Shown here in pieces: positions 39,213-57,800 of a stretch of 64,000 bases of DNA. The position numbers and the translations under genes were made by a program. Location of the stretch: positions 96,001 to 160,000 of the forward strand of contig CAYZJA010000001.1 in NCBI GenBank assembly GCA_964479005.1. Direction: 5' to 3'. Position 1 is the stretch's first letter, and each line of letters starts with the position of its first letter. The DNA comes from an uncultured Candidatus Saccharibacteria bacterium. Lineage in GTDB: Bacteria > Patescibacteriota > Minisyncoccia > UBA6257. The notes beneath the pieces are model-generated. The model did no database searches. It saw nothing but the letters and a program-made list of their open reading frames with translations, and was not told where the DNA came from.

Positions 39213-39926
39213 ATGAAAAGGAAGTTAGTTATAGTTTTTGTTTTGTTTATTTTAGTGCTGAGTTTTACTCCAATTTTGAAACACTGGTCTTCAGAATGGG
39301 AATTGAATGCCCCAGTGTTATTGGATAGCGTTCAATTATCGAATGATTGCCGTATATTGTTGGGATCGTATTATTCAAGCGGGGTGATTTATCAGGATAA
39401 TTCTTTTGAATTTATTACTCATTCATCTGATGTGTTTTCTGATGTAAATGGTTTTAGGCCCTATCCTTGGGGAGGAGAAGTGTTTTCAGGAGAAATATCT
39501 TTTTTATGTTCCCTTGATAATTATACAGGATTCAGATCATTTATGATCCAGGGGAAACAGAAAGATGATCATGGCGCCATTGCTGTTCCTGGTTTACTGT
39601 CAAAACCAAATGTAGAATCAGGAGAATTATATTATCTATCGTTTTGGGTGAAATATGATATTCAAGAAGGAGGATTTAGGCTTACACAACAATTCTTTCG
39701 TAAGCAAGACAGCGAATATCCTCATTATGCTTGCTATGGTTCTTTGATTAAAGGTAATAGTAATAAACGCTGGGAGTATGTAGGTTTAATTGTTCAGGCA
39801 CCAATTGATGCTTGGAAAGGAGATCCAGTATTAGAATTGAAAGGCAAGGGATTTGTTTTAGTTGATGATGTTTATTTCGGAAAGATAGAAATAATAAAGG
39901 AGGTGAATAAAGGTGAGATTCTTTAG
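39213..39926 (+). CDS. secreted/membrane-anchored hypothetical protein, first gene of the EPS module
   Basis: Strong SD aaggagg; signal anchor; beta-rich composition. Confidence 0.4.
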   Translation: MKRKLVIVFVLFILVLSFTPILKHWSSEWELNAPVLLDSVQLSNDCRILLGSYYSSGVIYQDNSFEFITHSSDVFSDVNGFRPYPWGGEVFSGEISFLCSLDNYTGFRSFMIQGKQKDDHGAIAVPGLLSKPNVESGELYYLSFWVKYDIQEGGFRLTQQFFRKQDSEYPHYACYGSLIKGNSNKRWEYVGLIVQAPIDAWKGDPVLELKGKGFVLVDDVYFGKIEIIKEVNKGEIL

Positions 39927-41196
39927 AAAATTAGGTATTTTTTCTTTTGAGGATTTTGTCTATGCCGGTTCTACTTTTGTGCTCGCGATGTATGTCATTT
40001 GTATTCTTGTAATTACTCTTTTCCAAATAACAGGGCAATCAGTAATTTTTAGCAGCCGTTTTTCACTCTGTTCTTTGGACATTCAATTTCCTTTTTTCTT
40101 AATTATTTGCATCATCCTGATGTATTTGAGTATGTTTATCTGGATTTTTATGGGATTTGCAGGTATATTTTATAGAAAAAAGGTAGATTTGAAGCAAGAA
40201 GATGATTCTACTCTAATATCAGTTCTTATCCCTGCGCATAATGAAGAAGATGTTATAGAAGGTATTTTGGGAGATTTAGTAGCGCAAGAATATAAGAACT
40301 TAGAGATTATCGTATTAGCTCATAATTGTACTGATTCCACAATATCCAGAGCGCAATCAGTAGATGATTCAAGGATTCAAATATTGGATATAAGAACTCG
40401 TAAGTCAGGAAAAGCATTAGCCCTTAACAGAGGATTAGAAGAAGTAAAAGGAGAAATTATTGCTCTATTTGATACTGACAACAGGATAAAAGATAAAAAA
40501 TTCTTTAATCGAGCAATAGTATATTTCAGAGACGAAACCATTGATGCTATCCAAACCGAACTTGCTACAAGTAACAGATCTGCTTCTTTGTTGACTTTTC
40601 TTCAGGAAGTAGAATATGATACTTTCTCTTCAATATCCTGGCGTGGTAGGGATGTTCTAGGTCTTCCTTGTTTTTTAGCAGGAACAGGTATTTTTATCCG
40701 AACAAAAACCTTAAGAGAGATGGGTGGATGGAAAAATTCCTTGGTGGAAGATTTTGAACTTTTTACTAGATTGACTTTGGAAAAGAAGAAGATAGTTTTT
40801 GCTGATAATCTTGTTGTTTATGATGAAAAACCGCCATCTTGGAGTGGAATAATGAAACAAAGATCACGTTGGATAAAAGGTCATTTGAAGGTTACTTGGG
40901 ATAATCTAGATAAGTTTGGAAATTGGTTGGACTATATTTATCGCTTGACTCCTTTAGCTGTTTTTGCATGGTGGGCATCAAATTTCCTATACTGGTTTTA
41001 CTATCTAACTGGCCAAATTTCTATTTTTAATGTAACAGGATGGATTTGGTTAAGTTGGACTTTTGCCTTCTTTGCTCTTCCTACTTATAATAGTATAAAA
41101 AAACGCAGTTGGAAAGGGGTTTTATTTTTGCCTGTTTATTGGTTCTTTGTTTTTCACTTGCTGTGGGCAAGTTTATACAGTTTAGGAGTGAAATGA
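39913..41196 (+). CDS. processive family-2 glycosyltransferase (polysaccharide synthase; cellulose/chitin/PNAG-synthase-like) with flanking TM helices
   Basis: GT-A fold motifs LISVLIPAHNEE and DTD (LFDTDNR), processivity motif QRSRW, multiple C-terminal TM helices. Confidence 0.8.
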   Translation: MRFFRKLGIFSFEDFVYAGSTFVLAMYVICILVITLFQITGQSVIFSSRFSLCSLDIQFPFFLIICIILMYLSMFIWIFMGFAGIFYRKKVDLKQEDDSTLISVLIPAHNEEDVIEGILGDLVAQEYKNLEIIVLAHNCTDSTISRAQSVDDSRIQILDIRTRKSGKALALNRGLEEVKGEIIALFDTDNRIKDKKFFNRAIVYFRDETIDAIQTELATSNRSASLLTFLQEVEYDTFSSISWRGRDVLGLPCFLAGTGIFIRTKTLREMGGWKNSLVEDFELFTRLTLEKKKIVFADNLVVYDEKPPSWSGIMKQRSRWIKGHLKVTWDNLDKFGNWLDYIYRLTPLAVFAWWASNFLYWFYYLTGQISIFNVTGWIWLSWTFAFFALPTYNSIKKRSWKGVLFLPVYWFFVFHLLWASLYSLGVK

Positions 41197-42353
41197 AACT
41201 TAGTAGGGAAATTGTAATAACGATTATAATTTTAATCTTTTTATTGGTATCTTTATCCGAATTTGGAGCAACTTTTTATTCTTCTATATCTCAAAAGCAG
41301 AAAAGTAGTAATTATATTTACGATGAGAAAATTATAGTTATAGATGAGAAAGTTATAGAAGATGAAAGACAGGAGATAGAGAATATTCAAATCAGTTTTA
41401 GAGGAATAGATTTCTATCCTGATCCTTATCCTTATTCTACTTCAGAAGCTTTTGATGCCTTAGAACAGCTCCTTAATTTTCAGGGAATGAATTATGTCCA
41501 ATTACGTTTTTTCCTAACTCAAGATTCTCTTACTTCCAACAAAGTGGTTTATGATGAAAAACAAGATATTACTCTAGAAAGCATGATTGTTATGATTCAT
41601 CAAGCAGGAAAGAGAGTATCATTACTGCCTGATATTATCATTAAAACAGGGGATTATGTAGCTAGTCTTAGTCCTGAAGATATTGAACAATGGTTTGCTT
41701 CTTATTATGATGCTTTAATGCACTATGCTATTTTGGCGCAGACATATGATGTAGAATTATACTGTATCGGTAATGAGCTTCATTCTTTATGGATAGAGGA
41801 TCAAAAATGGAGATACATTATTGATAAACTGAGAGAGCAATACAAAGGTTTAGTCACTACTAAACTTAACTGTTGGTGGCAGGAAAAAACATTCCAAAAA
41901 GTATTAACTTATGGTTGGCTGGAAAAACTTGATTATATTGCCATTGCTCCATATTTTGATCTAACGTGGGAAAATGATCTTTCTTTAGAAGAAATAAAGA
42001 GCAGCTGGCAGAATAGTCGTCATGGACTTAATATAGTAGCAGAATTGGAAGAAATCGCTAAAAAATATAAAAAAAAGATGATTTTTTCAGAGATTGGTTA
42101 TAGAAGCATTGATGGAACTACTATTGAACCTTGGAATAGTGATTCTATAGTACCTCGTTCAGGAGGAAGTGGTAAGATTGATTTAGAAGAACAATCCTTA
42201 GCTACTCAAGCTTTATTTGATGTTTTCAAAGATAAAGATTGGTGGGGAGGAGTATTCTGGTTCTATTGGCCGACTGTTAAACCAAATGAACAAGATAAAA
42301 CATGGGCTATATGGAATAAACCAGTACAGCTGGTTATTCAAAATAATTTTTGA
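41193..42353 (+). CDS. membrane-anchored clan GH-A-like glycoside hydrolase (TIM barrel; GH5/GH113-like)
   Basis: ATGA overlap with the GT2 gene; candidate catalytic pair IGNE ... FSEIG about 140 aa apart. Confidence 0.45.
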   Translation: MKLSREIVITIIILIFLLVSLSEFGATFYSSISQKQKSSNYIYDEKIIVIDEKVIEDERQEIENIQISFRGIDFYPDPYPYSTSEAFDALEQLLNFQGMNYVQLRFFLTQDSLTSNKVVYDEKQDITLESMIVMIHQAGKRVSLLPDIIIKTGDYVASLSPEDIEQWFASYYDALMHYAILAQTYDVELYCIGNELHSLWIEDQKWRYIIDKLREQYKGLVTTKLNCWWQEKTFQKVLTYGWLEKLDYIAIAPYFDLTWENDLSLEEIKSSWQNSRHGLNIVAELEEIAKKYKKKMIFSEIGYRSIDGTTIEPWNSDSIVPRSGGSGKIDLEEQSLATQALFDVFKDKDWWGGVFWFYWPTVKPNEQDKTWAIWNKPVQLVIQNNF

Positions 42354-42355
42354 AA

Positions 42356-42390
42356 CAAAGGGGAAGATTAATCTTCCCCTTTTATTTTTT
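42356..42390 (+). terminator. rho-independent terminator
   Basis: aaaggggaaga-ttaa-tcttcccctttt then T-run. Confidence 0.65.
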
Positions 42391-42486
42391 ATAAATATAA
42401 AATATTTTTATCATTTAATTTATAAAGCCAATGAAAGAGTTGGCAAATCATTATTAATATCATATTTTACTTAATTAAGAGTGGAC

Positions 42487-42680
42487 TTGACAAGAAAAAA
42501 AAAGTTTGCTATTGTGTTTTCACGGTGGGGCTTTTATTTTAGCCCCGCAGTGGGGCTTATGAATAATATTCAAAAAAGGGGATTTCATAATTTAAACAAA
42601 ATTTCTTTTCGATTTCTTGCGTTTAGTAAAATTGAAAAAGAAGTTTTTTGAGGTTGGCGTTTTTGCGCCAACTTTTTAAT
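42487..42680 (+). ncRNA. candidate promoter-to-terminator non-coding unit (~160 nt): promoter TTGACA-17-TATTGT at 42487-42515, terminator 42653-42680
   Basis: Same gGACTTGACAAG...GTTTGCTAT promoter architecture as the sRNA modules; hairpin GGGGCT...AGCCCC; only a weak 29-aa ORF inside. Confidence 0.3.
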
Positions 42681-42735
42681 ATTAAAATTAATAAAAAAAA
42701 TAAATAAAAAAATAAAAATTAATAAAATAAAAAAA

Positions 42736-43998
42736 ATGAAAAAAATAATAACAATTTTAAGTACTTCCCTTTTGATGTTTGCTTTTGTAACTTCAGTTTC
42801 CGCAGCAGCTCCGAATTGGAATGTCAGTGGAACATGGATGGCAGAGCATGAGTTCGGGGGGAATACTTACTCTCATGTAAACAACATTGTTCAAGCACTA
42901 GACGGTTCCCTGACGGGGACCGGAGGATGGGATGGTACGCAAAACGGCATCCCCGTTGGTACTCCTAATACATGGGAGATAACCAACGGTTCGGTTTCTG
43001 GTAACAACATTCAATTTAACTACCAATACAATACCGTCGAGTTATGCGCCAAGGATGGAGGTATTGATGCAGTAATTAATGCTGACGGTTCTATGACTGG
43101 AACATGGCATGATGATTGTGGTACTGGACGAACTGGCGCATGGACAGTCCCAGCAGGTTCCGCAGTCTATTTAAGAACTGCAGAAATTACTTCTCCAACA
43201 TCAGGAGAAGAAGTTTCGGGAATGGTTTCATTTGATGCAATACTAACTGACAAAGATGGTGATGATAGTGTTCAATGGGCAGTTCGTCAGGGTACTTGCA
43301 CTGCAGGAATAGGAACAGTGTTTGGTAATGTAGATGGTAAATCAGATATCTACACTTGGGATCATGTCAATTTCCATGCATCAGCCGATACTTCTTCCTG
43401 GGCTCCTGGAAATTACTGTTTTGTCTTTAATCCCACAGAGAGTGCTGGAGATATAGCTATTAGAGAGACACGAGAGTTTATCCTAAAAGACACTGTAGCA
43501 CCATTGGTAACGATAGAAAGTCCTAGTGAGGGTGATGTTGTTTCTGGTACAGTTGAAATTTATGGAACTGTTGTAGAATACTATATGCTAAGTCACTACA
43601 ATATCTCGGTTTATCCAGGTGATGCCGACTTTAATGATTTCAGCAAAAGAATAGCTCAAGCAACTATTTATCGCACTACGGGTTTTAGTAATGAATTAAT
43701 TTTCGCATGGGATTCAACTGGATTTGAAGATGGCGAGTATCTAATTAGATTAGCTGCTAGAGACGCTGCTGGTAATCGTAGTTATGATGGCGATGCATAT
43801 CTAGGTGGTGATGATTCACAGCATGTGATTAGAGTAACTGTGAATAATATACCAGACCTAATTGGTCCACCGATTAATAAAGATCAATGTAAAAAAGATG
43901 GTTGGAAGATATTTGATAATCCAAGTTTTAAGAATCAGGGAGATTGTGTAAGTTATGTCCAGAGTAATGAAAATGCAAAAGGAAATAAAAATAAATAA
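42736..43998 (+). CDS. secreted protein with Ig-like beta-sandwich domains (GC-richer composition)
   Basis: Signal peptide ...SVSAAAP; TVAPLVTIESPSEGDVVSGTVEIYG is Big-like; Lys-rich tail. Confidence 0.45.
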   Translation: MKKIITILSTSLLMFAFVTSVSAAAPNWNVSGTWMAEHEFGGNTYSHVNNIVQALDGSLTGTGGWDGTQNGIPVGTPNTWEITNGSVSGNNIQFNYQYNTVELCAKDGGIDAVINADGSMTGTWHDDCGTGRTGAWTVPAGSAVYLRTAEITSPTSGEEVSGMVSFDAILTDKDGDDSVQWAVRQGTCTAGIGTVFGNVDGKSDIYTWDHVNFHASADTSSWAPGNYCFVFNPTESAGDIAIRETREFILKDTVAPLVTIESPSEGDVVSGTVEIYGTVVEYYMLSHYNISVYPGDADFNDFSKRIAQATIYRTTGFSNELIFAWDSTGFEDGEYLIRLAARDAAGNRSYDGDAYLGGDDSQHVIRVTVNNIPDLIGPPINKDQCKKDGWKIFDNPSFKNQGDCVSYVQSNENAKGNKNK

Positions 43999-44023
43999 AA
44001 AATAAATAAAAAAAATAAAAAAT

Positions 44024-45772
44024 ATGAATAAACAATTATTCTCTAAAACGATTTCACTTTTCTTAGTTTTTTCTTTGGTGTTCGTAGGTGTTTCAATATT
44101 TTCACCAAATAATATTGAAGCTAAAGGACAGAAACCAAATAACAAAATATCAATTTGTCATAGAACTAGTTCTGCTACTAATCCTTGGAATGTAATTAAT
44201 GTTAGTGTTAATGCTCAAGATGCTCACTTAGCTCATGGAGATTTTCTTTATGAAGGTAGTTATCCAGTGAATTCTAAAGAAGCAGAGGAATGGTGTGGCA
44301 TGACTAGATATACTTGTAATGAAAGTACTTGGCAATGTGTAATTGATAACCAAGGTCAATATTCAAGTTATGATGATTGTTCAACTGTTTGTCAGGAACC
44401 AATGGCAACTGTAACAATTTGTAAATATGACGAAGAAAGGAATCCTTTAAGTGGATGGAAAATGATTTTGAAAGGGGATTTGCAAGACCAAGTAACTGTT
44501 TTTCCTGATGGGTCAGCATATTTGTCAGGAGATTTACCATTAGAAGATTATTTATTAATGGCTTCTGGTCAATATGTTTATAGGCCTGGAACTTTAGGGG
44601 CTGAATATTCTGATGCTGGCTATACTAAGAGGAATTGTCCAGGAGATGCTACTTATTTATGTAGTGGTCCCTATACCCCATGGTTTAATGTTTTTGATAT
44701 TATAGGTATTCATAAAGGATGGTTGGGGATTATGGTTAATGACGCCGCAACTAATTGGGGTTCTTACTTTAACTCTGCTCATACTTATGCTCTGGGATAT
44801 CCTAATTATAGTGGTTCATTATCTTTTACAATTAAAGATGATGTGTATAGTGATAATTCAGGACAATTAAATGTTGATATTTATAAAGGATATACTGGGG
44901 AGACAGATGAAAATGGTTGTATAACCTTTAATGATGTTCCTTTGGAAACTTATTCTCTTGAGGAAATTCTTAAAGATGGATGGCAAAATGTTAGTGGTTT
45001 AGGACAGATTGTTATTGATGAATCTCAAGAAACTTTTGATGTGATTAATAGTGAAATTAAAAGCGAAAAAGAACTAGCATGCATAAATTCAGGTGGCACA
45101 GTTGGAACAGGTATATGCTGCAAAAGTGTAGAAGGTTTTCCAAATGATTGTGCTACAGGAGCCTGCGGTTGTTCTGCAGGAGATAGCCATGAAGTTCAGG
45201 TTTGTAATTGTCCAGCAGGCAAATGTTTTGATGGAAATTCCTGCGTAACAAAATGTGAAGAAGGAATTAATCTTCTTAAAAACGGTAGTTTCGAATATCC
45301 GGAAGTAACTAATACAAGCAAATGGCAGTTATTTCCATCAGGGACAGCTCTACTTGAATGGGTAGTTGGATGGGTTAGCGCTGCTCCATCAGACCCTCCA
45401 ACAATTGAAATACAGAAAGGCGTAGTAGTTTCTCCTAGTAATGGACTTCAAAGCATTGAATTAGATTCAGAAGCTCCAACCTATATTTCTCAAGCAGTTA
45501 ATACAGAATCTGGCTATGGATATAAATTAAGCTTTGATTTTGCAGCCAGGCCTAATACTTCAGAAGAAGATAATAAATTAGAGGTTTGGGCTGATAGTAT
45601 TCTTAAAGATAGTATTAGCAGCAATACATCTTGGCAAACAAAAACATATAATTTTAATGCTACTTCTAACCTTACGGAAATCAAATTCGTGGATATAGGA
45701 ATTCCTAATACCGATTCAATGGGTACATTATTAGATAATGTTAAATTAGAATGTGTTCCGCCGGTTCTGTAA
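44024..45772 (+). CDS. secreted multidomain protein, shorter paralogue of the 1440-aa giant: Cys-knot module, ~210-aa prealbumin/CnaB-like tandem domain, C-terminal jelly-roll-like domain
   Basis: Signal peptide MNKQLFSKTISLFL...; the TVTICKYDEER...ETFDVIN block is >60% identical to 1440-aa residues ~810-1020; C-terminal NGSFEYPEVT...LDNVKLECVP matches NGDFESPEVT...LDNVSVRCVP. Confidence 0.5.
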   Translation: MNKQLFSKTISLFLVFSLVFVGVSIFSPNNIEAKGQKPNNKISICHRTSSATNPWNVINVSVNAQDAHLAHGDFLYEGSYPVNSKEAEEWCGMTRYTCNESTWQCVIDNQGQYSSYDDCSTVCQEPMATVTICKYDEERNPLSGWKMILKGDLQDQVTVFPDGSAYLSGDLPLEDYLLMASGQYVYRPGTLGAEYSDAGYTKRNCPGDATYLCSGPYTPWFNVFDIIGIHKGWLGIMVNDAATNWGSYFNSAHTYALGYPNYSGSLSFTIKDDVYSDNSGQLNVDIYKGYTGETDENGCITFNDVPLETYSLEEILKDGWQNVSGLGQIVIDESQETFDVINSEIKSEKELACINSGGTVGTGICCKSVEGFPNDCATGACGCSAGDSHEVQVCNCPAGKCFDGNSCVTKCEEGINLLKNGSFEYPEVTNTSKWQLFPSGTALLEWVVGWVSAAPSDPPTIEIQKGVVVSPSNGLQSIELDSEAPTYISQAVNTESGYGYKLSFDFAARPNTSEEDNKLEVWADSILKDSISSNTSWQTKTYNFNATSNLTEIKFVDIGIPNTDSMGTLLDNVKLECVPPVL

Positions 45773-45878
45773 GTTATAAATAATATCCGGCAATTACAAA
45801 AGAAAAAGTTGATAGGATTTAATGGCGAATTAACCGTTCATTTTAAATAAAAGATTAAAAAGTTAAATATATAAAAAA

Positions 45879-48800
45879 ATGAAAAAACAATTTTTCTCTA
45901 AAACATTTTCAATTTTCTTGGCACTTTCTTTTGTACTTTCTAATAGCGCAATGTTAGTGCCATTACAAGCTGAAGCTTGTGAGGAAGAAATATGCGAAGA
46001 CGTTATTGTGGTAAGTAATATAGAAGATAAGGTTTTTGATATTGCAGAAACTCTTCCCGGTGAAGCAGCTGTTCTTGCTTGGGATGATCATCCGGCATGG
46101 ACAGCGTATATTGAAGGCGCAAATTGGATTTGGAAGACAGAATATGTAGAAAATCCTGATCAAGACGAAACATATATATTTAAAAAAGATTTTGATATTG
46201 TTGGCATTCCAGATTCTGCAACATTAAAAGTTGCAACTGATAATTCGTATAGTGTTTGGGTTAACAATGTTTTGATTGGAGAAGTTATAACTGAAGATAA
46301 TCACAGTTCAACAACCCAAGATCAATATAATAATATCGTTGACTTTCATACCGGTTCAAATGAAATTAAATTTGAAGTTAAAAACTGGGCAGGAAATGCG
46401 TCACCGAAATTAAATCCTGCAGGTCTTTTGTATAGACTTGAGATTGTAAGATCTTCTTGTGAACCTCAATGTATACCTCAATCTTCTATAGAAACAGACT
46501 GTACTAATGGTTTAGATGATGACTGCGATGGTTTTATTGATAGTGAAGATTCTGATTGTCAGATGTTAATAATGGCTTCTAAAGTAATTTGTGATAATGA
46601 ATCAGATTTACCTAATTGGGGGACAGGATCTGGAGTTGACTATCCTTCATATAACATTGATCAAAACACAGCTTCGGATTATGTAGCTGAACATTCTGGT
46701 TGTTATTTAGCTTCTAATTGGTTTTTTCAATGGGGACAACAAGGTTCTGATGATTTTGGAAAAGACTTTTATGGAGAAGCTGGCAATGGCTACACTACTT
46801 TTGGGCCAACAAATGAAAATGGAGTAGCTAGTACAACAGTGGATTCTGTTACCGGTAGTTATTTGGAATTAAGGGAAGTTCTGCAGCAAGGTTATATTCC
46901 TTTTACGTATGACCAATCACATAAATCTAATGATAATAATATTTCTGCAGAATTTTATTGCCACAATGATATTCTCAATTATGATAACTGGGATTATATA
47001 AAAAATCCTCAATTAGGAATTACTCATTATTGCGTTGGATTTAATGCATTAATCGAACAAGAAGAACCAGAACCTGTTTGTGGAAATGAAATTATAGAAA
47101 CTGGTGAACAATGTGATCCACCTTCAACCACTGCTCCTAATTCTACTGATGAATATTTCTGTGACCAAAATTGTAATTTAGTTCCTATCTATCATTCTCT
47201 GGATGGTTGTCCAAAAAATCAAATCCTAGAATTTATTCAGTCTTATCAAATTCATTCAACTAGTACGACAGAAGTTATTATTCCTGTGAGTGGTAGCGAT
47301 ACATATAAGTTTGAAGTTAAAGGAACTTTTTATCCTACTCAAAATGGAAAAAATGAGAATTTCCTATCAGATGCCGCCTATACGACTGAAGATGGCTGGG
47401 TTTCAACTTCTACAAAATACGGAATTAAAGGCATACCACCTGATTATGCTGCCCATGCTTTATTAGGTGATTTAGGATTAGGGGCTGGAGTAATTAATTG
47501 GGGAGATTATGATTCTTCTCATGAATATGATTTCTCTTACACAATTCCTTCAGGCGCTACTTCTACTCAATTTGTGATAGGTGATAGATGGGATAATTGG
47601 TTTATACCAGATGATATTAGTTGGAATAATCAAGGCGGAATGAAAGATAATCTTGGAAATTTGACTTTAGATGTTTATGAGTGTAAGCCAATCCAAGCTA
47701 GATGTGATCCTAAGTTAGAATTAGTTATGAATGGCGATTTTGAGAGTCCTGAAGTGACTGATCTAGTAAAAAAATGGGGTATTTTTCCATCAGGGACAAC
47801 CGATTTAGAATGGTTAATTAATTGGAGAGAAATTTGGCCTTCAGCACCAAAAATAGCAAATCTTGAAATTCAGAAAAGTTATTATACTCCAGTAATAGCT
47901 CCTGTAGTTCCTGGAGATCCAGATCAATATGCTGAGTTAGATACTGATTGGCATGGTCCAGGTGGACCTTCTGGTGAACCAGCCTCAGTAGCTATTTCTC
48001 AAGATATTCCAACAATTATAGGGGAAACTTATAGATTAAGTTTTGATTTTTCACCACGACCATATACTGATTTAGAACAGAATCATTTAAAGGGTTTTGT
48101 TGATAGCGCTGAATTATTTGATATTTCTGCTGATGGTTCTGGTTTAACAGATACTTTATGGAATCAATATTCTGATAATTTTGTTGCTACAAGTTCAATA
48201 ACAAACATTAAATTTACTGATTATGGTACACCAGACTCTTTAGGCACTTTCTTAGATAATGTTAGCGTAAGATGTGTTCCTCAGGACGAACCTACTATGT
48301 ATCATTGTAATGAGGAATGGCAATGTATAGCAGATCCTGAAGGTGAATATAATACTGATAATTGTGACAATCAATGTATTAAACCTGGAACATCCACAGT
48401 TACTATTTGTAAATATAATGAACAAGAAGAACCTTTAAGAGGTTGGAAGATGATACTTAAAGGTGATAGGTATGATACAGTGCCTGTTTTTCCAGATGGG
48501 CAAAATTATTCTTCAAATCCTTTGCTATTAGGTGATTACTTAATTCAGGCTTCTGGTCAATATTTATATAGACCAGGAACACCTGGCGCTGAGTATTCTG
48601 ATGCTGGCTATACTAAGAGGAATTGTCCAGGAGATGCTGATTATTTATGCAGTGGAGATTATACCCCATGGTTTAATGTTTTTGATATTATAGGTATTCA
48701 TCAAGGATGGTTGGGGATTATGGTTAATGATAATCTTACTGATTGGGGGTATTTTACTTCTGACCATACTTATACTCTTGGCTATCCTGGTTATAGTGGT

Positions 48801-50201
48801 TCGTTCACTTTTACTATAAAGGATGATGTATATTCAGATAATAGTGGATCATTAACAGTTAAAATCTATAAAGGCTATGTAGGGGAAACTGGAGAAAAAG
48901 GATGTGTTACATTTAATGGTGTTCCTTATGGCGAGTATATAGTTGATGAAGATCTTCAAAGTGGTTGGATAAATCAAGATGGTTTAGGAAATGTTACAGT
49001 AGATGACCTAGAAGAAACATTTGATGTTGTCAATATTCCACCAGAAGGACAGATAGGTTCTTTAACTGTTTGTAAATATAGAGATCACGAACCATTTGGG
49101 GAATACAATACAGGTATTGATACACCTCTAACTTGGGAGATGAGAATTATTGGACCTAATAGTTATGATCAATTGTACGAAACTGATCCTCAGAATGGAT
49201 GCAAAACAATAAATAATTTAGAATATGGCCAATATGTAGTTTCTGAAGAATTGAAGATTGGTTGGGATCAAACTTATCCTCTTGATCCTAATACCCATAC
49301 CATTGATATAAATGGCGGTAATTCTAATCCATCAGTATATTTCTTGAATTATAAAACAATTGATAATGGTGGAACAAAATATGCTTGTAATGCAGAAGGG
49401 CAATGTATAGAAAATGAAGGGGGTAATTATACCACTTCTAATTGTGATGAAGAATGTAGACCATATCCATATACTTGTAATTCATCTACCTCAGAATGTG
49501 TACGTGATGTTCATGGCCAATTTGGTTTATTGCAAGGTTGTGAGGATGCTTGTAGGGTATCTACTCCATTAGGAGGTCAATATGCAATATTGGGAACAGT
49601 TTTGGGTGCTGCTACTGAAAAGGAAGAAGAACCTTGCGGTCTTTATCTTTTGGAATACATAAAGCTTGGAGGTGATAATAATCCTGAGGAAGTGAAGAAA
49701 TTACAATATTTCTTAAATGAATATCTTGGCATTAATTTAGAGATAACAGGAGTTTATAATCAAGCTACTTATCAAGAAGTTATGAGATTCCAGCTTCTTT
49801 TGAACGATGAAATTTTGGCTCCTTGGGTTGAAGTTAATTGTCTTCCATCTAGTAATATAGCTACTGGTTATGTTTATCGAACAACACAATGGAAAATAAA
49901 TATGATTGTTTGTCCAGAATTGAACCTTCCAGTACCGAATTTATATGATGAAACTTGTAAATATATTAGTCTATATCCAGGAGAAGGTGTAGTTGCTGGA
50001 GCAGCTACTTCTACAGTGGGTGGAACTAATGGAACTACCACAACTACCTCAACTACAACTCCTGAAACAATAGGAGATACTACAACAACTGTTCCTCAAG
50101 ATACTGGGGATGAGCAGTCACAAAATTGGATTTGGGTTTTGATTGGACTTTTAGTGATTGGCGGCGCAGCTTATTTGGTTTATCAAACTAGACAAGTATA
50201 A
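45879..50201 (+). CDS. giant (1440 aa) cell-surface protein: signal peptide, Cys-rich Myxococcus-type repeats (CGNEIIETGEQCD), a metal-binding-like CTNGLDDDCDGFIDSEDSDC, two prealbumin/CnaB-like blocks, a jelly-roll-like domain, a PG_binding_1-like domain, a Thr-rich linker and a C-terminal TM anchor
   Basis: Motifs read directly; C-terminus ...TTTTSTTTPETIGDTTTT...NWIWVLIGLLVIGGAAYLVYQTRQV. Confidence 0.55.
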   Translation: MKKQFFSKTFSIFLALSFVLSNSAMLVPLQAEACEEEICEDVIVVSNIEDKVFDIAETLPGEAAVLAWDDHPAWTAYIEGANWIWKTEYVENPDQDETYIFKKDFDIVGIPDSATLKVATDNSYSVWVNNVLIGEVITEDNHSSTTQDQYNNIVDFHTGSNEIKFEVKNWAGNASPKLNPAGLLYRLEIVRSSCEPQCIPQSSIETDCTNGLDDDCDGFIDSEDSDCQMLIMASKVICDNESDLPNWGTGSGVDYPSYNIDQNTASDYVAEHSGCYLASNWFFQWGQQGSDDFGKDFYGEAGNGYTTFGPTNENGVASTTVDSVTGSYLELREVLQQGYIPFTYDQSHKSNDNNISAEFYCHNDILNYDNWDYIKNPQLGITHYCVGFNALIEQEEPEPVCGNEIIETGEQCDPPSTTAPNSTDEYFCDQNCNLVPIYHSLDGCPKNQILEFIQSYQIHSTSTTEVIIPVSGSDTYKFEVKGTFYPTQNGKNENFLSDAAYTTEDGWVSTSTKYGIKGIPPDYAAHALLGDLGLGAGVINWGDYDSSHEYDFSYTIPSGATSTQFVIGDRWDNWFIPDDISWNNQGGMKDNLGNLTLDVYECKPIQARCDPKLELVMNGDFESPEVTDLVKKWGIFPSGTTDLEWLINWREIWPSAPKIANLEIQKSYYTPVIAPVVPGDPDQYAELDTDWHGPGGPSGEPASVAISQDIPTIIGETYRLSFDFSPRPYTDLEQNHLKGFVDSAELFDISADGSGLTDTLWNQYSDNFVATSSITNIKFTDYGTPDSLGTFLDNVSVRCVPQDEPTMYHCNEEWQCIADPEGEYNTDNCDNQCIKPGTSTVTICKYNEQEEPLRGWKMILKGDRYDTVPVFPDGQNYSSNPLLLGDYLIQASGQYLYRPGTPGAEYSDAGYTKRNCPGDADYLCSGDYTPWFNVFDIIGIHQGWLGIMVNDNLTDWGYFTSDHTYTLGYPGYSGSFTFTIKDDVYSDNSGSLTVKIYKGYVGETGEKGCVTFNGVPYGEYIVDEDLQSGWINQDGLGNVTVDDLEETFDVVNIPPEGQIGSLTVCKYRDHEPFGEYNTGIDTPLTWEMRIIGPNSYDQLYETDPQNGCKTINNLEYGQYVVSEELKIGWDQTYPLDPNTHTIDINGGNSNPSVYFLNYKTIDNGGTKYACNAEGQCIENEGGNYTTSNCDEECRPYPYTCNSSTSECVRDVHGQFGLLQGCEDACRVSTPLGGQYAILGTVLGAATEKEEEPCGLYLLEYIKLGGDNNPEEVKKLQYFLNEYLGINLEITGVYNQATYQEVMRFQLLLNDEILAPWVEVNCLPSSNIATGYVYRTTQWKINMIVCPELNLPVPNLYDETCKYISLYPGEGVVAGAATSTVGGTNGTTTTTSTTTPETIGDTTTTVPQDTGDEQSQNWIWVLIGLLVIGGAAYLVYQTRQV

Positions 50202-50373: not shown

Positions 50374-50889
50374 ATGAAAAAGATATTAATTGGTTTAACG
50401 ATCATTACATTGGCTGCAATGGTTGCTAGTCCTGCTATGGCTTACTACTGGCCAATGCCAATGGAATCCAGTGACGTAACAGTCAATAATGATAGTTACT
50501 CGAGGATTCGCAATAACGTAACAGTTGTTGCTAAAACCGGCGATAACACTGCTAATACTGGCTCGGCAAGTTTCGGTGGTTTGGGTAGTACAATTCAGAC
50601 TGGTAATGCTGTCGCTGAAGCGACAGTAGTAACTGTTGCCAACACAAATTACACCAGAATTAAGGCTCCTTGCACTAATTGCGACGGCGATGTCACTGTT
50701 AACAATGATGATAGTGACGCTTTTGTCAGGAATAGAGTTAGGGTTATTGCCGACACCGGCGATAACACTGCTAATACTGGCTCGGCATGTTTAGGTGGTG
50801 AGGGTAGTTTGATTGTAACAGGCAGTGCATGGGCTGAAGGAAATGTTGTTACTGTTACTAACACTAACATAACCAGAATTCGCAGATAG
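50374..50889 (+). CDS. secreted protein made of two ~62-aa copies of a novel TGDNTANTG/NTN repeat
   Basis: Signal peptide; VTVNNDSYSRIRNNVTVVAKTGDNTANTGSA...VANTNYTRI repeated as VTVNNDDSDAFVRNRVRVIADTGDNTANTGSA...VTNTNITRI. Confidence 0.5.
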   Translation: MKKILIGLTIITLAAMVASPAMAYYWPMPMESSDVTVNNDSYSRIRNNVTVVAKTGDNTANTGSASFGGLGSTIQTGNAVAEATVVTVANTNYTRIKAPCTNCDGDVTVNNDDSDAFVRNRVRVIADTGDNTANTGSACLGGEGSLIVTGSAWAEGNVVTVTNTNITRIRR

Positions 50890-50958
50890 TAATTGATTGT
50901 TATGAACAGGAAGGGGGTTCTTTGTCCTCTTCCTTGCATAAGCCCTTAAAAGATTATT

Positions 50959-51549
50959 TTGAGGGCTTATGCAAGGGATATTAAAAAATCAAATATGAAA
51001 AATCAAATATCAAAAATTCCGGTTTTAGTTGCTTTTCTGACAATTATTCCGTTAGTTTGCGGGGCTTTTTCCTTTGAAGAACCTTTTGATGATTTTGAAG
51101 AATGGATTTCGGATCTTAGTGATGGAATGAGTAGTACTCATATAATAAATGAAGTTAAGGTTTTAACAAATACTGGCAATAATGTAATTAATGGCGAAAT
51201 AACAGAAGGTGAAGCAAAAAGCCGGATTTTTATTAAAAACGTTATTAATGGAAAAGAAATAGACCCAATTGAGATTGAATCTGATAAAAACGAAATTAAA
51301 GTGGAAAGCCAAATTAAAACAGAAAATGGCAAAGTTATTATTCAGAGAGAAATTCAAATTGATTCTGAAAAAAGCACTGAAAATTATGAGGTTGATTTGG
51401 AAAATTCAGAAACTGAGACAGAAAGTGAAGGAATATTGAAAGACGGTTTAGATTCCTTTCAAGAAGGATGGTTAGATTTTATCGAAGATTTAAGGTCTTT
51501 TTTTGACGATATCTTTAATATTTTTAAATTAAATGCAAGAATCAAATAG
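50959..51549 (+). CDS. secreted acidic protein with one degenerate TNTGNN repeat (true start probably MKNQISK at 50995)
   Basis: Signal peptide IPVLVAFLTIIPLVCGA; VKVLTNTGNNVINGEITEGEA; 17-nt overlap with the next gene. Confidence 0.4.
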   Translation: MRAYARDIKKSNMKNQISKIPVLVAFLTIIPLVCGAFSFEEPFDDFEEWISDLSDGMSSTHIINEVKVLTNTGNNVINGEITEGEAKSRIFIKNVINGKEIDPIEIESDKNEIKVESQIKTENGKVIIQREIQIDSEKSTENYEVDLENSETETESEGILKDGLDSFQEGWLDFIEDLRSFFDDIFNIFKLNARIK

Positions 51550-54163
51550 ATTAAAAAACTTTATTTTAATTCCTTTGCTAATCATAAGTTTGGTAGGTTT
51601 TAATTTTTATCCCTTTTTGGTTTTTGCAGAAGGAGATGGAGTTGTCACCGAAGGAGTAGTAATTGAGAATAATGAAGACACGCAGATTGTTACTGGAGAT
51701 TCTAATACTGAAGTTAATCTTGAAAACACTGTAAATTCTAATCTTACCGAATTAAACGGGGATGATTCTTCAGACGGAGAATCAGAACCTCTTGAGAATT
51801 TAGAATGTGAGGAAATTGATGTTACTACTTCAAGCACTGATGTTGTTTTTAATATTGCCAATGATAATGAGGCAGAAGTAGAGAATAATATCGAGACTGA
51901 GGAAGAAACTGGAGATAATGAAATTGATCAAAGTGAAGGAGATGCCATCATTGACACCGGAGATATAAATTTAGTCGTTGGCGTAGTTAATACAGTCAAC
52001 ACTAATGTTACTGGTTCTGATTTTTCTCAGCTTTTGTTAAACGTTTTTGAAAATTTAGAAGAAGATATTGATTTATCTGACCAATTAATGGGAATTTCTT
52101 CTTTGGAAAATTGTTATTCACCAATGGAATGTTTTGATCTTAATATTGTTAATGATAACCAAGGAAGTATTGAAAATAATATTTTAGTTGATGCATCAAC
52201 TGGCGAAAATACTGCCCAGAGTATTGATGGAGACGCAATCATTAAGACCGGTAACGCTAATGTTGCAGTTAATGCTTTAAATATTCTCAATACCGATATT
52301 ATCGGCTCAAACTGGACTCAGCTTATTATCAATGTATTTGATAATTGGACTGGCGATTTAGTTTTTCCCGGAAAAGGAAAAATGCAAGGATTTTTAAATC
52401 AAAAACCGCGCTCCTGTGAAGGAGATTGTGGAGATACTAATATAGTTAATTCTAATGAAGGCGAGATTGAAAATAAAGTCCATGTTCAGGCTAATACTGG
52501 CGAAAATCAATCTAATGGAAATTCAAGTATTATCCGCACTGGCCAAGCTAATGCTGAAGTTAATCTTTTAAATATTGCCAATACTAATTTATATGATAAG
52601 AATTGGTTTTTTGTAGGAATTAATAATTTTGGCAACTGGAAAGGAAATGTATTTAGTTTGCCTCCTGGTTTGGAAATGTCAGGAGATTCTAATAGTGTTC
52701 AAATTTATAATCTTGAACTAGAAGATGTTAATAATCCAACAGAAGATTTTGATAATAACACCAGTGGTAATTCTTTGAATATAGTCAATGAAAATACCGG
52801 GATTATTAAAAATAATATTATAGTTAATCTTTCGACTGGCGAGAACTCAGCTATTTCTTCTAACGGTCAGACAACGATAGAGACCGGAGATGCCAATACC
52901 CTAACTAACATTGCCAATCTTTTAAATTCAAATATTGTCGGCAGTAATTGGCTTTTGGGAACTGTAAATATTTTAGGAGATTGGAATGGAGATTTGGCTT
53001 TTGGCCGTCCTGATAATTGGATTGGTGGGAGTGTTGCCTCTTCTCATAATCCGGTTTCTCCTGGAGAAACTATAACTTATACTTTGACATATATTAACAA
53101 TGGGGATGCTGATGCTACACAAGTAATGATTATTGATGATTACGATGAGGCGCATCTTTCTATTATAGATACAGGTGGTGGAATTATCATTGATAATCCT
53201 GGCGAGATTCAGTGGGACATTGGAACAATTGCAGTAGGCGGTTCCGGTTCAGTTTCTTATTCTGCTGTAATTGATCCAGAAGTACCTTATGGTACTACCT
53301 ATCTTACTAATCAGGCGACAATTGATAGTTTTGAAGAAGATTTTAATAATGAAGATAACATTGAAATTTTATCAATTGAAGTGTATAGACCTTTGCCAGT
53401 TGCTTCAGTTATGTTGGGTTTTTCTTCTCCCTCGTCTTCGCCAAAATTGGAAATTAGCAAAACTCACAATGTAGATGATTTCGTTTATTCAGGAAGCGAT
53501 GTTGATTTTAAGATAGTGCTATATAATGATAGCGATAGTTCTGCTTATGATGTTGTCGTTTATGATACTTTACGGAACGATGCATCTGAAGCGATCAGTA
53601 CTTCCCATTGGGATTTGGGAGAAGTTTTCCCTCACGAAGAAATAATTATTGACTATACGGCAGCCATAGGTTCTGAGTTTCCAGCCGGCTTTTATACTAA
53701 TATAGCTGAGGCTCTAGGTTTTGATAGCCAGGGAAATCCAGTTAGTTCTCCTGAGGCCTCTAGCACAATTGAGGTTAGGGCGGCAGAAGTTCCTCCTGAT
53801 GAAACAGAGGAAGTGGAGGAAATTTCTCTTGAGGAGATAGAAAAGGAATTAAAAGAAATGAAAGACAAGATAAGAAAAATAAGAGAAGAGATAGAAAGAC
53901 TTTCTCATCCGTCTCCAGTCGAAGAATTTACAAGTTCTCTTCCAAAACAATTAATATCAGAGGTTTTGGCTGCTGAAGAACCTTTTGTTCCCAAAGAAAA
54001 AATTAATTTGCCTGAAAGAGGTTTGGCTCCGTTGCTTTTGGCTAGCTTAAGAGAGATAGGGGGAACGGATTGGATGATGATTTTGGCCATTTTTTGCCTT
54101 ATTGGGTTAATTATAATTGGAATTAGAGAGTGGGAATTAATTCGAAAAAAGAAAAAGAGATAA
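51533..54163 (+). CDS. large (876 aa) surface protein: N-terminal TM/signal, four or five copies of the ~75-aa TGEN/NTN repeat, two DUF11-type domains, a Glu/Lys coiled coil and a C-terminal TM anchor with KKKKR tail
   Basis: Repeats NIVNDNQGSIENNILVDASTGENTAQS...TGNANVAVNALNILNTDI and variants; DUF11-like PVSPGETITYTLTYINNGDADATQV...WDIGTIAVGGSGSVSY. Confidence 0.55.
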   Translation: MQESNRLKNFILIPLLIISLVGFNFYPFLVFAEGDGVVTEGVVIENNEDTQIVTGDSNTEVNLENTVNSNLTELNGDDSSDGESEPLENLECEEIDVTTSSTDVVFNIANDNEAEVENNIETEEETGDNEIDQSEGDAIIDTGDINLVVGVVNTVNTNVTGSDFSQLLLNVFENLEEDIDLSDQLMGISSLENCYSPMECFDLNIVNDNQGSIENNILVDASTGENTAQSIDGDAIIKTGNANVAVNALNILNTDIIGSNWTQLIINVFDNWTGDLVFPGKGKMQGFLNQKPRSCEGDCGDTNIVNSNEGEIENKVHVQANTGENQSNGNSSIIRTGQANAEVNLLNIANTNLYDKNWFFVGINNFGNWKGNVFSLPPGLEMSGDSNSVQIYNLELEDVNNPTEDFDNNTSGNSLNIVNENTGIIKNNIIVNLSTGENSAISSNGQTTIETGDANTLTNIANLLNSNIVGSNWLLGTVNILGDWNGDLAFGRPDNWIGGSVASSHNPVSPGETITYTLTYINNGDADATQVMIIDDYDEAHLSIIDTGGGIIIDNPGEIQWDIGTIAVGGSGSVSYSAVIDPEVPYGTTYLTNQATIDSFEEDFNNEDNIEILSIEVYRPLPVASVMLGFSSPSSSPKLEISKTHNVDDFVYSGSDVDFKIVLYNDSDSSAYDVVVYDTLRNDASEAISTSHWDLGEVFPHEEIIIDYTAAIGSEFPAGFYTNIAEALGFDSQGNPVSSPEASSTIEVRAAEVPPDETEEVEEISLEEIEKELKEMKDKIRKIREEIERLSHPSPVEEFTSSLPKQLISEVLAAEEPFVPKEKINLPERGLAPLLLASLREIGGTDWMMILAIFCLIGLIIIGIREWELIRKKKKR

Positions 54164-56681: not shown

Positions 56682-56709
56682 TTGACTTCCTTAATAGATT
56701 GGCTATAAT
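56682..56709 (+). promoter_or_regulatory. promoter TTGACT-16-TATAAT for the Fic gene
   Basis: Near-consensus -35/-10; the ORF tool start (TTG at 56709) overlaps the -10, so the true start is probably ATG 56739. Confidence 0.45.
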
Positions 56710-56738
56710 TGGATATAGCTAATATAGCCAATAATCAT

Positions 56739-57800
56739 ATGGCAAGAAATAAACAATTTGATCAGAGAATAGAAAATATTCCTACAGAAATTTGGTCAAA
56801 GCTTATACAAATTGATGAATTAAAGGGGCAATGGATTGCCGGCGCTCGGTTGAGCCCACAAGTTTTAAACCACCTTAAGCGGTCTGTTTTGATTACTTCT
56901 ACTGGTGCCTCAACTCGTATTGAGGGAGCTCGGCTTTCTGACGAAGATGTTGAGAAATTAATGCGTGGTATTGATATTCAGAAGTTTACTGACCGTGATA
57001 AGCAGGAAGTAAAGGGATATTTTGAATTACTAGAAAATATTTTTGATTCTTGGAGATCGATTAAGCTTTCAGAAAGCGCTATCAAGCATTTTCACAAAGA
57101 GCTTTTGAAGTATGTAAAAAAGGATGAACTCCACAGAGGTGATTATAAGAAAACCGAGAATAAAGTTGAGATGATTGATGCAGCTGGTAAATCCATCGGA
57201 ACTCTTTTTGACACTACACCGGTATATCTTACCCCGAAAGAAATGCAGGAATTAGTAGAGTGGACCCGAGAATCTTTGGCTGAAAAAAAATCTCATCCAC
57301 TTTTGATTGTTGGTAATTTTCTTGTTGAGTTTTTACAGATTCATCCATTCCAAGATGGCAATGGCCGGCTTAGCCGTGTTCTTACAAATCTTCTTTTATT
57401 GAAAGAGGGATATTTATATATGCCCTATATTTCTCATGAGAAGCTGGTTGAAGACAATAAGCCGGATTACTATATGGCCTTACGCAGAAGTCAAAAGACT
57501 TTTAAGACAGATCACGAAGACATCACTTCGTGGTTGGATTTCTTTTTGACTATTTTATTGAAGCAGTCAAAGATGGCCGTTGAGCTACTCTCAAAAGAGA
57601 ACATTGAAAAACTTCTTTCAATGAAGCAACTTGCTGTTTGGGAGTATTTGCAAAAGGCAAAAGAAACTACTACCGGCGAGATTATCAGAGGAACCAAGAT
57701 TACACGGCCTACTGTAAAACAGGCTCTTAACAAATTATTGCGTCTCAAAAAAATTGAACGCATTGGGCTCGGTAGAAGCACAAGATATAGAAAATTATGA
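56739..57800 (+). CDS. Fic family protein (AMPylator type) with a class II N-terminal inhibitory motif and a C-terminal winged HTH
   Basis: Fic motif HPFQDGNGRLSR; STRIEGA fits (S/T)xxxE(G/N); C-terminal wHTH-like ...LLRLKKIERIGLGRSTRYRKL. Confidence 0.85.
   Translation: MARNKQFDQRIENIPTEIWSKLIQIDELKGQWIAGARLSPQVLNHLKRSVLITSTGASTRIEGARLSDEDVEKLMRGIDIQKFTDRDKQEVKGYFELLENIFDSWRSIKLSESAIKHFHKELLKYVKKDELHRGDYKKTENKVEMIDAAGKSIGTLFDTTPVYLTPKEMQELVEWTRESLAEKKSHPLLIVGNFLVEFLQIHPFQDGNGRLSRVLTNLLLLKEGYLYMPYISHEKLVEDNKPDYYMALRRSQKTFKTDHEDITSWLDFFLTILLKQSKMAVELLSKENIEKLLSMKQLAVWEYLQKAKETTTGEIIRGTKITRPTVKQALNKLLRLKKIERIGLGRSTRYRKL

Follow-up and report, generated by a model that had tools for sequence, protein, structure and literature searches.

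Three adjacent genes of an uncultured Candidatus Saccharibacteria bacterium, here called A, B and C, encode proteins that carry signal peptides and share one repeat with a conserved core of about 51-55 amino acids (aa). All three lie on the plus strand of the window, by which we mean the whole stretch of 64,000 nucleotides (nt) analysed here (contig CAYZJA010000001.1, positions 96,001 to 160,000), and their open reading frames (ORFs) are where an earlier reading of the letters, made without database searches and hereafter called the sequence-only reading, had placed them (Table 1). We are highly confident that the repeat is a new, unnamed and surface-located family, and it is essentially restricted to Patescibacteria. 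The gene trio probably builds a cell-surface adhesin or fibre of an undescribed kind. We give an even chance to the proposal that A, B and C make up a conserved cell-surface module, typical of Patescibacteria and built from one beta repeat of ~51 residues, which would assemble by repeat stacking.

Patescibacteria represent a very large, mostly uncultivated share of bacterial diversity, and the cultivated ones live attached to host cells. To our knowledge little is known of their attachment beyond type IV pili and a few adhesins. The trio is a concrete and testable candidate for an attachment structure specific to the candidate phyla radiation (CPR). It combines a large extracellular family, a confidently predicted fold without a close solved relative and a conserved operon, and the domain fusions described below point to a system for assembly or display at the surface. 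Defining the repeat would annotate thousands of proteins.

The shared repeat and the three proteins

We built a repeat profile from the two units of A and iterated it on homologues, which gave a core of 51 positions, TNNNDATVENNVTVSANTGDNSASGNTGDASITTGDANASANVVNVVNTNI. A hidden Markov model (HMM) of this repeat found no match in the other ORFs of the window. The sequence-only reading had counted two copies in A, one degenerate copy in B and four or five in C, and these counts held. The two halves of A are 68% identical across 65 residues (BLASTP E=1e-27), C carries 4.5 copies, namely four full ones (42-53 bits) and a half copy (21.7 bits), and none of 2000 shuffles reached the 17.4 bits obtained for B (maximum 8.2). 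B-like proteins of other loci match the repeat HMM at 17-28 bits. The repeat length of ~60-75 aa that had been proposed stood only in part: the core is shorter, and the period is 74 aa in A and ~97-113 aa in C, where each core carries behind it an extra segment of ~45 aa (GSNW..LIINVFDNWxGDLxFP, or more loosely GSNW...NxFxNWxGD) that makes the period longer. Since the copies are only 63-76% identical to a reference copy at the DNA level, they represent old duplications retained at the protein level, not recent repeats.

The genes had also been described as overlapping or abutting, and as possibly coupled in translation. This applies to B and C, which overlap by 17 nt (51533-51549), a short overlap (17-50 nt) that recurs in relatives of at least four lineages, whereas a stretch of ~105 nt, folding into two strong hairpins, lies between A and B. 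A putative joint surface structure, suggested at the same time, is supported by the signal peptides of all three proteins, the stalk and membrane anchor of C, and the recurrence of the A-(B)-C gene order.

Protein A consists of a Sec-type signal peptide (aa 1-23, ...PAMA/YY) followed by two repeat units, with no anchor, and its mature form is ~15 kDa. It begins and ends flush with its repeats, and neither end has an obvious cap. There is a Cys-x-x-Cys linker (C100, C103), and the C-terminal tail, NTNITRIRR, is conserved. In alignments of the A family T55, G56, N58, T76, G77, A79, C100 and C103 are near-invariant.

Protein B has a signal peptide and a single degenerate repeat, then a middle region that is acidic, and ends in a conserved amphipathic tail, LRSFFDDIFNIF. 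A B-like gene lies between an A-like and a C-like gene in 14 loci, and the alignment of these 14 members has a recognisable signature: the signal peptide, N.VNVSxxTGxN, GE(I/V)xEGExK...NG.E.EP and a C-terminal LKSFFxNIFSIF. Across this alignment the first half of the repeat is strongly conserved and the second half is degenerate. Two starts can be assigned to B. The TTG at 50959 sits in the 3′ arm of the second hairpin behind A, and the ATG at 50995 is the more likely start; among gene calls of the Joint Genome Institute (JGI), one uses the 184-aa form and another the longer form. A 'RAYAR' peptide that appeared to be conserved between B and its counterpart in a related locus (L006) is explained by the conserved RNA stem.

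Protein C has more than 130 homologues, and those with names are mostly called 'DUF11 domain-containing protein [Patescibacteria...]'. Its N-terminal hydrophobic leader, read from the sequence, ends in ...VFA/EGD. The mature N-terminus begins with an orphan half repeat that is present also in the family consensus, is modelled with high confidence, and was detected in 68 of 177 large relatives. Together with the four full cores it forms a head spanning aa ~40-490. The head is followed by a stalk of two domains (PF01345, 59.6 bits against a cut-off of 24.6, in two stretches; PF24346, 27.6 against 27), an acidic, glutamate-rich helical linker, and a C-terminal helix of 18 hydrophobic residues that ends in KKKKR. 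With a membrane helix, no LPXTG signal and no sortase motif in the ORFs of the window, C should be a type I membrane protein that holds its head off the cell.

On a JGI contig of essentially the same organism (Ga0309839_1000001), the C protein (P0264) is 971 aa long instead of 876 aa. It is 97% identical to C of the window over the 835 residues downstream of an insertion, which is one near-identical copy, of ~95 aa, of the first full repeat unit and brings the count on this contig to 5.5. The difference represents either a polymorphism in repeat number or an assembly collapse of the repeat.

Table 1. Features of the A-B-C locus (window coordinates) and repeat fusions in related loci (coordinates of each locus).
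Feature	Position	Strand	Details and basis
Gene A	50374..50889	+	171-aa secreted protein; ORF, internal repeat, family alignments
A repeat core 1 (aa 39-92)	50488..50649	+	HMM domain, 41.5 bits
A repeat core 2 (aa 113-166)	50710..50871	+	HMM domain, 41.0 bits
Two adjacent RNA stem-loops past the A stop codon	50908..50973 (hairpin 1 50908-50934, hairpin 2 50935-50973)	+	Folding, covariation
Gene B	50995..51549	+	184 aa from ATG 50995; 196 aa from TTG 50959
B degenerate repeat (aa 60-97)	51136..51249	+	Broadened HMM, 17.4 bits
Gene C	51533..54163	+	876-aa membrane-anchored surface protein
C orphan half repeat (aa 45-71, second strand only), mature N-terminus	51665..51745	+	HMM positions 24-51, 21.7 bits
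C head, four full repeat cores (aa 110-159, 207-256, 306-353, 419-468)	51860..52936 (51860-52009, 52151-52300, 52448-52591, 52787-52936)	+	HMM, 42-53 bits each
C stalk, CLIPPER/DUF11 (aa 504-611) and CLIPPER_2/DUF7507 (aa 636-739)	53042..53749	+	Pfam
C membrane anchor, hydrophobic helix WMMILAIFCLIGLIIIGI and basic tail REWELIRKKKKR	54071..54160	+	Read from translation
Repeat fusions in related loci	L002 6392-7783; L006 2456-4566; L015 5771-7072; L023 1398-2360; L017 8992-10410		

An unnamed family with a wholly beta predicted fold

The sequence-only reading did not recognise the repeat as a named family, and our searches agree. We compared the proteins with Pfam-A 2025 (24,736 models) and NCBIfam 20.0 (18,950 models). 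A and B gave only noise (E>=0.03, <=14 bits), the repeat region of C had no match, and the matches of C were confined to aa 503-739 (DUF11/CLIPPER, DUF7927, DUF7507/CLIPPER_2). The repeat HMM, which according to the same reading might have led to an existing Pfam repeat family, led to none. Pfam showed no family covering the repeat in 69 A-like relatives and no family at all in ten relatives of intermediate length. The Pfam families of more than 100 C-like relatives, taken from precomputed lists, are of stalk or immunoglobulin (Ig) type, binding or anchoring, with none for the repeat head, and the Pfam matches of both C and the C-like protein of L002 map downstream of the repeats. Sequences in PDB were matched by neither A, the C head nor a profile of 69 sequences. 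In the source databases the A-like members are 'hypothetical protein' or nameless, and the C-like ones are named after DUF11, fibronectin type III and the like. In the literature we found no description of the repeat; one paper on Patescibacteria genetics does not mention it.

A regular beta repeat had been suggested from the alternation of residues. AlphaFold2 was run on A, as had been proposed, and gave a poor model of A alone (7-sequence alignment; predicted local distance difference test, pLDDT, 57). As this model was too poor for a fold search, the C head was modelled instead, and aa 30-500 of C (103-sequence alignment) gave a pLDDT of 86.3 and a predicted template modelling score (pTM) of 0.85, with 317 residues at 90 or above. 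The model is wholly beta, with a pLDDT mostly above 90 in the part with the four full repeats. Each unit of ~100 aa in it comprises a very long strand, a pair of short ones at the TGxN and TGxA turns and further strands of 9-11 residues, and the high pTM speaks for packing of the 4.5 units into a single rigid body. We call the predicted fold beta-solenoid-like and claim no more. A Foldseek search with this model against PDB and BFVD returned nothing significant; its weak structural neighbours include RTX beta-rolls, the Ca2+-dependent S-layer protein RsaA and a Ca2+-dependent beta-helical antifreeze protein.

In ~1000 non-redundant cores the conserved residues occupy alternate positions on both long strands (N2, N4, A6, V8, N10, V12, A16, T18, G19 and N21 on strand 1; I32, T34, G35, A37, A39, V43, N45, V47, N48 and N50 on strand 2). 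The best direct couplings (2-50, 16-37, 21-32 and 8-47) fall on an antiparallel register (i+j ~52-55), in a noisy signal with only two pairs above z=3. They are suggestive of two strands that pack their small or Asn-rich faces together, as in solenoid-type repeats.

Distribution, gene order and fusions in relatives

A profile search of 1.84 billion cluster representatives retrieved 2852 proteins at E<=1e-3, 1586 of them at E<=1e-10; with representatives drawn at 50% identity, the family comprises ~2850 clusters. The matches listed fall into a small class of ~150-280 aa, a large class of ~600-1200 aa and a class of ~415 aa. Two repeats were found in 82 of 115 small relatives, and in 105 of the 115 the last repeat ends 8 aa or less from the C-terminus, TRIRR being the commonest tail. 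Large relatives mostly have four full repeats. Four repeats are found also in the third class (~415-455 aa; P0288, P0305, P0323 and P0324, from Levybacteria and other Microgenomates), with a period of ~88 aa (ISGNGxxSDN... plus the core), and these proteins end in a proline-containing motif and a short hydrophobic tail without basic residues (e.g. ...PEMPSNVEVSFSFAAMMAFFGMSF). Such a tail resembles a signal for C-terminal sorting or anchoring of an uncharacterised type.

We also scanned genomes with two C-type patterns as seeds. Both lie within the C-specific extension, so this taxonomic survey is biased towards C-like proteins. It returned 32 loci, all from metagenome-assembled genomes (MAGs) of Patescibacteria or MAGs labelled only 'bacterium'; the labels include Saccharibacteria, Portnoy- and Giovannonibacteria, Paceibacterota, Microgenomates, Berkelbacteria and Parcubacteria. 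The named protein matches come from Patescibacteria, Nealson-, Giovannoni-, Levy- and Daviesbacteria. The sole label outside Patescibacteria that we saw, 'Candidatus Marinimicrobia', belongs to P0074, a homologue of the C head (E=1e-37), for which mis-binning of the contig or a transfer could account.

Of the 32 loci, 20 have a short repeat-bearing gene (<400 aa) on the same strand upstream of the C-like one. This gene is A-like except in L009 and L015, where it is the B-like gene that follows an A-like one. Two further loci are cut by a contig end, and the other ten are taken up below. Seen from the A-like side, a large protein is encoded downstream in three of three loci, with CLIPPER in two, and downstream of the A-like gene of a groundwater relative (32% identical) as well. 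The same-strand A-(B)-C order recurs in very distant Patescibacteria lineages, at 25-45% identity.

Near related trios the A-type module, as one or two repeats, is also found fused to the C-terminus of binding-domain proteins (Table 1). The partners are VWA (60 bits), DUF642 ('choice-of-anchor C'-like) with PA14-like domains, TasA/camelysin-like regions, or domains of unknown type; the L015 protein is a VWA fusion, and the TasA/camelysin-like ones (L017 and L023) were recognised by eye from their N-terminal motif, without a Pfam match. The repeats of these proteins are often preceded by CC or CxxC motifs, and the proteins have no anchor of their own.

Some further genes near related loci are of note. 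TasA/camelysin-type (Peptidase_M73) genes with an AFFSDTE...GNTFAAG N-terminal signature lie just downstream of related trios (L002, 12227-16551; L043, 10234-10836), which may point to a larger neighbourhood of fibre or biofilm genes. A few kb from the A-C pair, L043 (1967-3750) and L044 (3503-4828 and 10183-10662) have sortase and subtilisin-like (Peptidase_S8) genes, of which the window has none.

RNA hairpins behind gene A

The two adjacent stem-loops past the stop codon of A have a minimum free energy (MFE) of -41.2 kcal/mol (z -6.8). The element is kept in related loci, with compensatory changes at seven pairs. When we compared the 90 nt past A-like genes of 22 loci with 90 control gene ends of the same loci, the median z was -5.8 versus -1.1 and the median MFE -35.7 versus -15.9 kcal/mol (Mann-Whitney p=2e-6). 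No Rfam family matched the hairpins at threshold. They are probably a 3′-end stabiliser or an attenuator that uncouples A from B and C, and their role may lie in mRNA stability or processing rather than in termination of transcription. This pattern is as expected if A is expressed separately from B and C, and probably at a higher level.

A proposed assembly and its alternatives

Taken together, the hairpins, the fusions and the open repeat ends point to the repeat as a self-associating module. In the assembly that we propose, the repeat would be a self-associating structural unit that presents the conserved N, A, V, T and G residues on the facing sides of its two long strands and leaves the other face variable. 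Secreted A-type modules would stack on the anchored C protein at its repeat head, which starts with an orphan half repeat, and would thereby either extend this head into a fibre, with A as the major subunit, or simply dock on it. Through the two-repeat fusions (VWA, DUF642/PA14-like, TasA-like), binding domains would be attached to this scaffold too. B, whose overlapping gene would tie its synthesis to that of C, could serve as adaptor, nucleator or cap, and its strong first-half repeat could complement the orphan second half in C. The hairpins behind A would allow A to reach levels disproportionate to those of B and C. Such a structure would probably serve attachment to host cells or surfaces. 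A, B or both are about as likely as not to assemble physically with C. A true polymeric fibre is a more tentative proposition, and so is its full version, a new Patescibacteria/CPR-specific beta-solenoid fibre with C as stalked nucleator, B as split-repeat adaptor, A as cap-less major subunit and cargo-fused subunits as decoration; we consider both possible and rather unlikely. If the fibre reading is true, it would describe an attachment organelle that is curli-like but unrelated, in an episymbiotic lifestyle.

Several observations weigh against assembly by stacking. A is not obligatory, for no A-like gene was detected beside the C-like gene in ten loci whose flanks are complete. The ~415-aa class, with four repeats and its own hydrophobic tail, indicates that the repeat can work within a single chain. 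Adjacency and common repeats could stem from tandem duplication and co-regulation. A-like proteins and C heads offer no charge complementarity, as both are acidic in most loci (the net charge of C heads is -26 to -131, and most A-like proteins are strongly acidic), and an electrostatic pairing of A with the C head was rejected on this ground. The hairpins show no clear U-tract, so that their effect on expression is assumed, and the prediction for A alone was poor, as noted above.

As the main alternative, the genes might encode independent paralogous binders that form no A-B-C complex, with the repeat body as a ligand surface for a host glycan, the cell wall or a mineral; C would be a self-sufficient adhesin, A a soluble binder or decoy, and the clustering a result of duplication and co-regulation. 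The ten loci that lack a detectable A-like gene fit such binders, as does the variability of the outward repeat positions, expected of a diversifying binding surface, and in the known layout of fibrillar adhesins it is the N-terminal domain that is adhesive (PMC12617251). Independent binders fit less well with the same-strand A-(B)-C order kept across distant Patescibacteria at 25-45% identity, with the recurrent orphan half repeat in C and B/C overlap, or with the anchorless VWA, DUF642 and TasA-like fusions, which need a holder on the cell, and we take them to be a real possibility of modest probability, with the binders acting on their own. A Ca2+-dependent S-layer or sheath lattice, in which acidic A subunits are joined at D/N/G/T-rich turns (TGDN, TGDA) and C and B tether the layer, appears improbable. 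Mature A is much below the size of typical S-layer proteins, which are far larger than ~15 kDa; the Ca2+ site is only putative; and neither an RTX GGxGxD repeat nor an S-layer family was among the Pfam/NCBIfam matches of A, B and C or the Pfam matches of the 69 A-like relatives. What speaks for a lattice is the strong acidity of all heads and most A-like proteins, the weak structural neighbours named above (RTX beta-rolls, RsaA and the antifreeze protein), and the very strong hairpin behind A, which fits an abundant envelope protein.

We consider it very improbable that the trio forms a covalent polymer of the sortase/pilus type with A as a pilin-like and C as a basal subunit, even though L043 and L044 have sortase genes a few kb away from the A-C pair and SpaA-type domains are present in the neighbouring 582-aa and 1440-aa proteins of the window. 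The C-terminus of A (...NITRIRR) lacks an LPXTG-like motif, a hydrophobic stretch and a basic tail, and at its other end A has a signal peptide of the Sec type instead of a type IV pilin leader. C is anchored by a plain membrane helix. LPXTG-like signals are absent from the ends of all three gene products, and no TLxTC motif occurs in the ORFs of the 64-kb window. Lastly, the repeat could be a known family missed by the libraries, as Pfam and NCBIfam are limited to what had been curated by their dates, or a compositional artefact, the window having ~32% GC and N/T/G/D-rich proteins. We hold this to be just as remote, given position-specific conservation over 51 columns in ~1000 non-redundant repeats, the numbers of cluster representatives at both E-value thresholds, the shuffle controls for B, the confident prediction of the C head, and the lack of a match in Pfam, NCBIfam and PDB sequences or of a description found in the literature.

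Comparison with known surface systems

CLIPPER has been described as the stalk of fibrillar adhesins, and some DUF11 domains lack an intramolecular isopeptide bond (PMC12617251). Like these adhesins (PMC12617251), C has a signal peptide, an N-terminal head, a CLIPPER/CLIPPER_2 Ig-like stalk and a C-terminal anchor. It differs from them in that its head is a body of unnamed repeats and not a known adhesive domain, its stalk has only two domains, and it is anchored by a membrane helix, neither by a sortase-type nor by an OmpA-type module. Just upstream of C there are, moreover, the genes of two small secreted proteins built from the head's repeat.

If A polymerises on C, the trio would be an independent invention of the principle known from curli, a shared-repeat subunit plus nucleator. 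In curli CsgA is the major subunit and CsgB the nucleator, whereas the present trio belongs to a Patescibacterium and has, in C, a stalked membrane protein as partner. The curli repeat is ~22 aa long, compared with ~51 aa and much longer strands here, and there is no sequence relationship: Curlin_rpt (PF07012) matched neither A, B and C nor the 69 relatives (E<=0.01). No gene resembling those of the CsgG/E/F type was seen among the neighbours examined, which cover only part of the window.

Systems with modular minor pilins or tip adhesins, in which a pilin module is joined to VWA or lectin domains, and cohesin-dockerin display resemble the present one in using a small module that occurs alone (A) or fused to other domains (VWA, DUF642/PA14-like, TasA-like) together with a cell-anchored protein that has several copies of the module. 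In contrast to them, fold and sequence are unrelated, pilus machinery, sortase signal and cohesin/dockerin signatures are lacking, and the interaction is inferred. Right-handed beta-helix and beta-roll proteins (SufB/SufD, RTX blocks, autotransporter passengers and the putative adhesin 4qrk) are also among the closest known systems. RTX/HemolysinCabind nonapeptide repeats (GGxGxDxUx, PF00353) were not found, A, B and C had no match to the TasA/camelysin (PF12389, Peptidase_M73)/SipW-type signature, and the sole LPXTG-like motif of the window is in an unrelated ORF. By these defining sequence features the trio does not appear to be a member of the curli, RTX, TasA or sortase-pilus families. The comparison suggests a repeat-built surface adhesin or fibre system.

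Genes around the trio

Upstream of the trio, at 39213-50201 of the window, lies an island of surface-protein genes. It encodes a 420-aa Big_7 protein, a 582-aa protein with DUF642 and SpaA-type domains, and a 1440-aa protein with DUF642/'choice-of-anchor C', SpaA-type and PG_binding_1 domains and a C-terminal membrane helix. The latter two have in common a long, near-identical internal segment. The DUF642 proteins of the island are without the repeat module, while similar DUF642 proteins in relatives bear it C-terminally. Two more ORFs of the island, of 427 and 414 aa, resemble by eye a glycosyltransferase and a glycoside hydrolase. Downstream of the trio, small ORFs and a 450-aa multi-helix membrane protein were read from the translation, and a 363-aa ORF at 56709-57800, unrelated to the trio, shows in its translation a Fic-type motif, HPFQDGNGRLSR.

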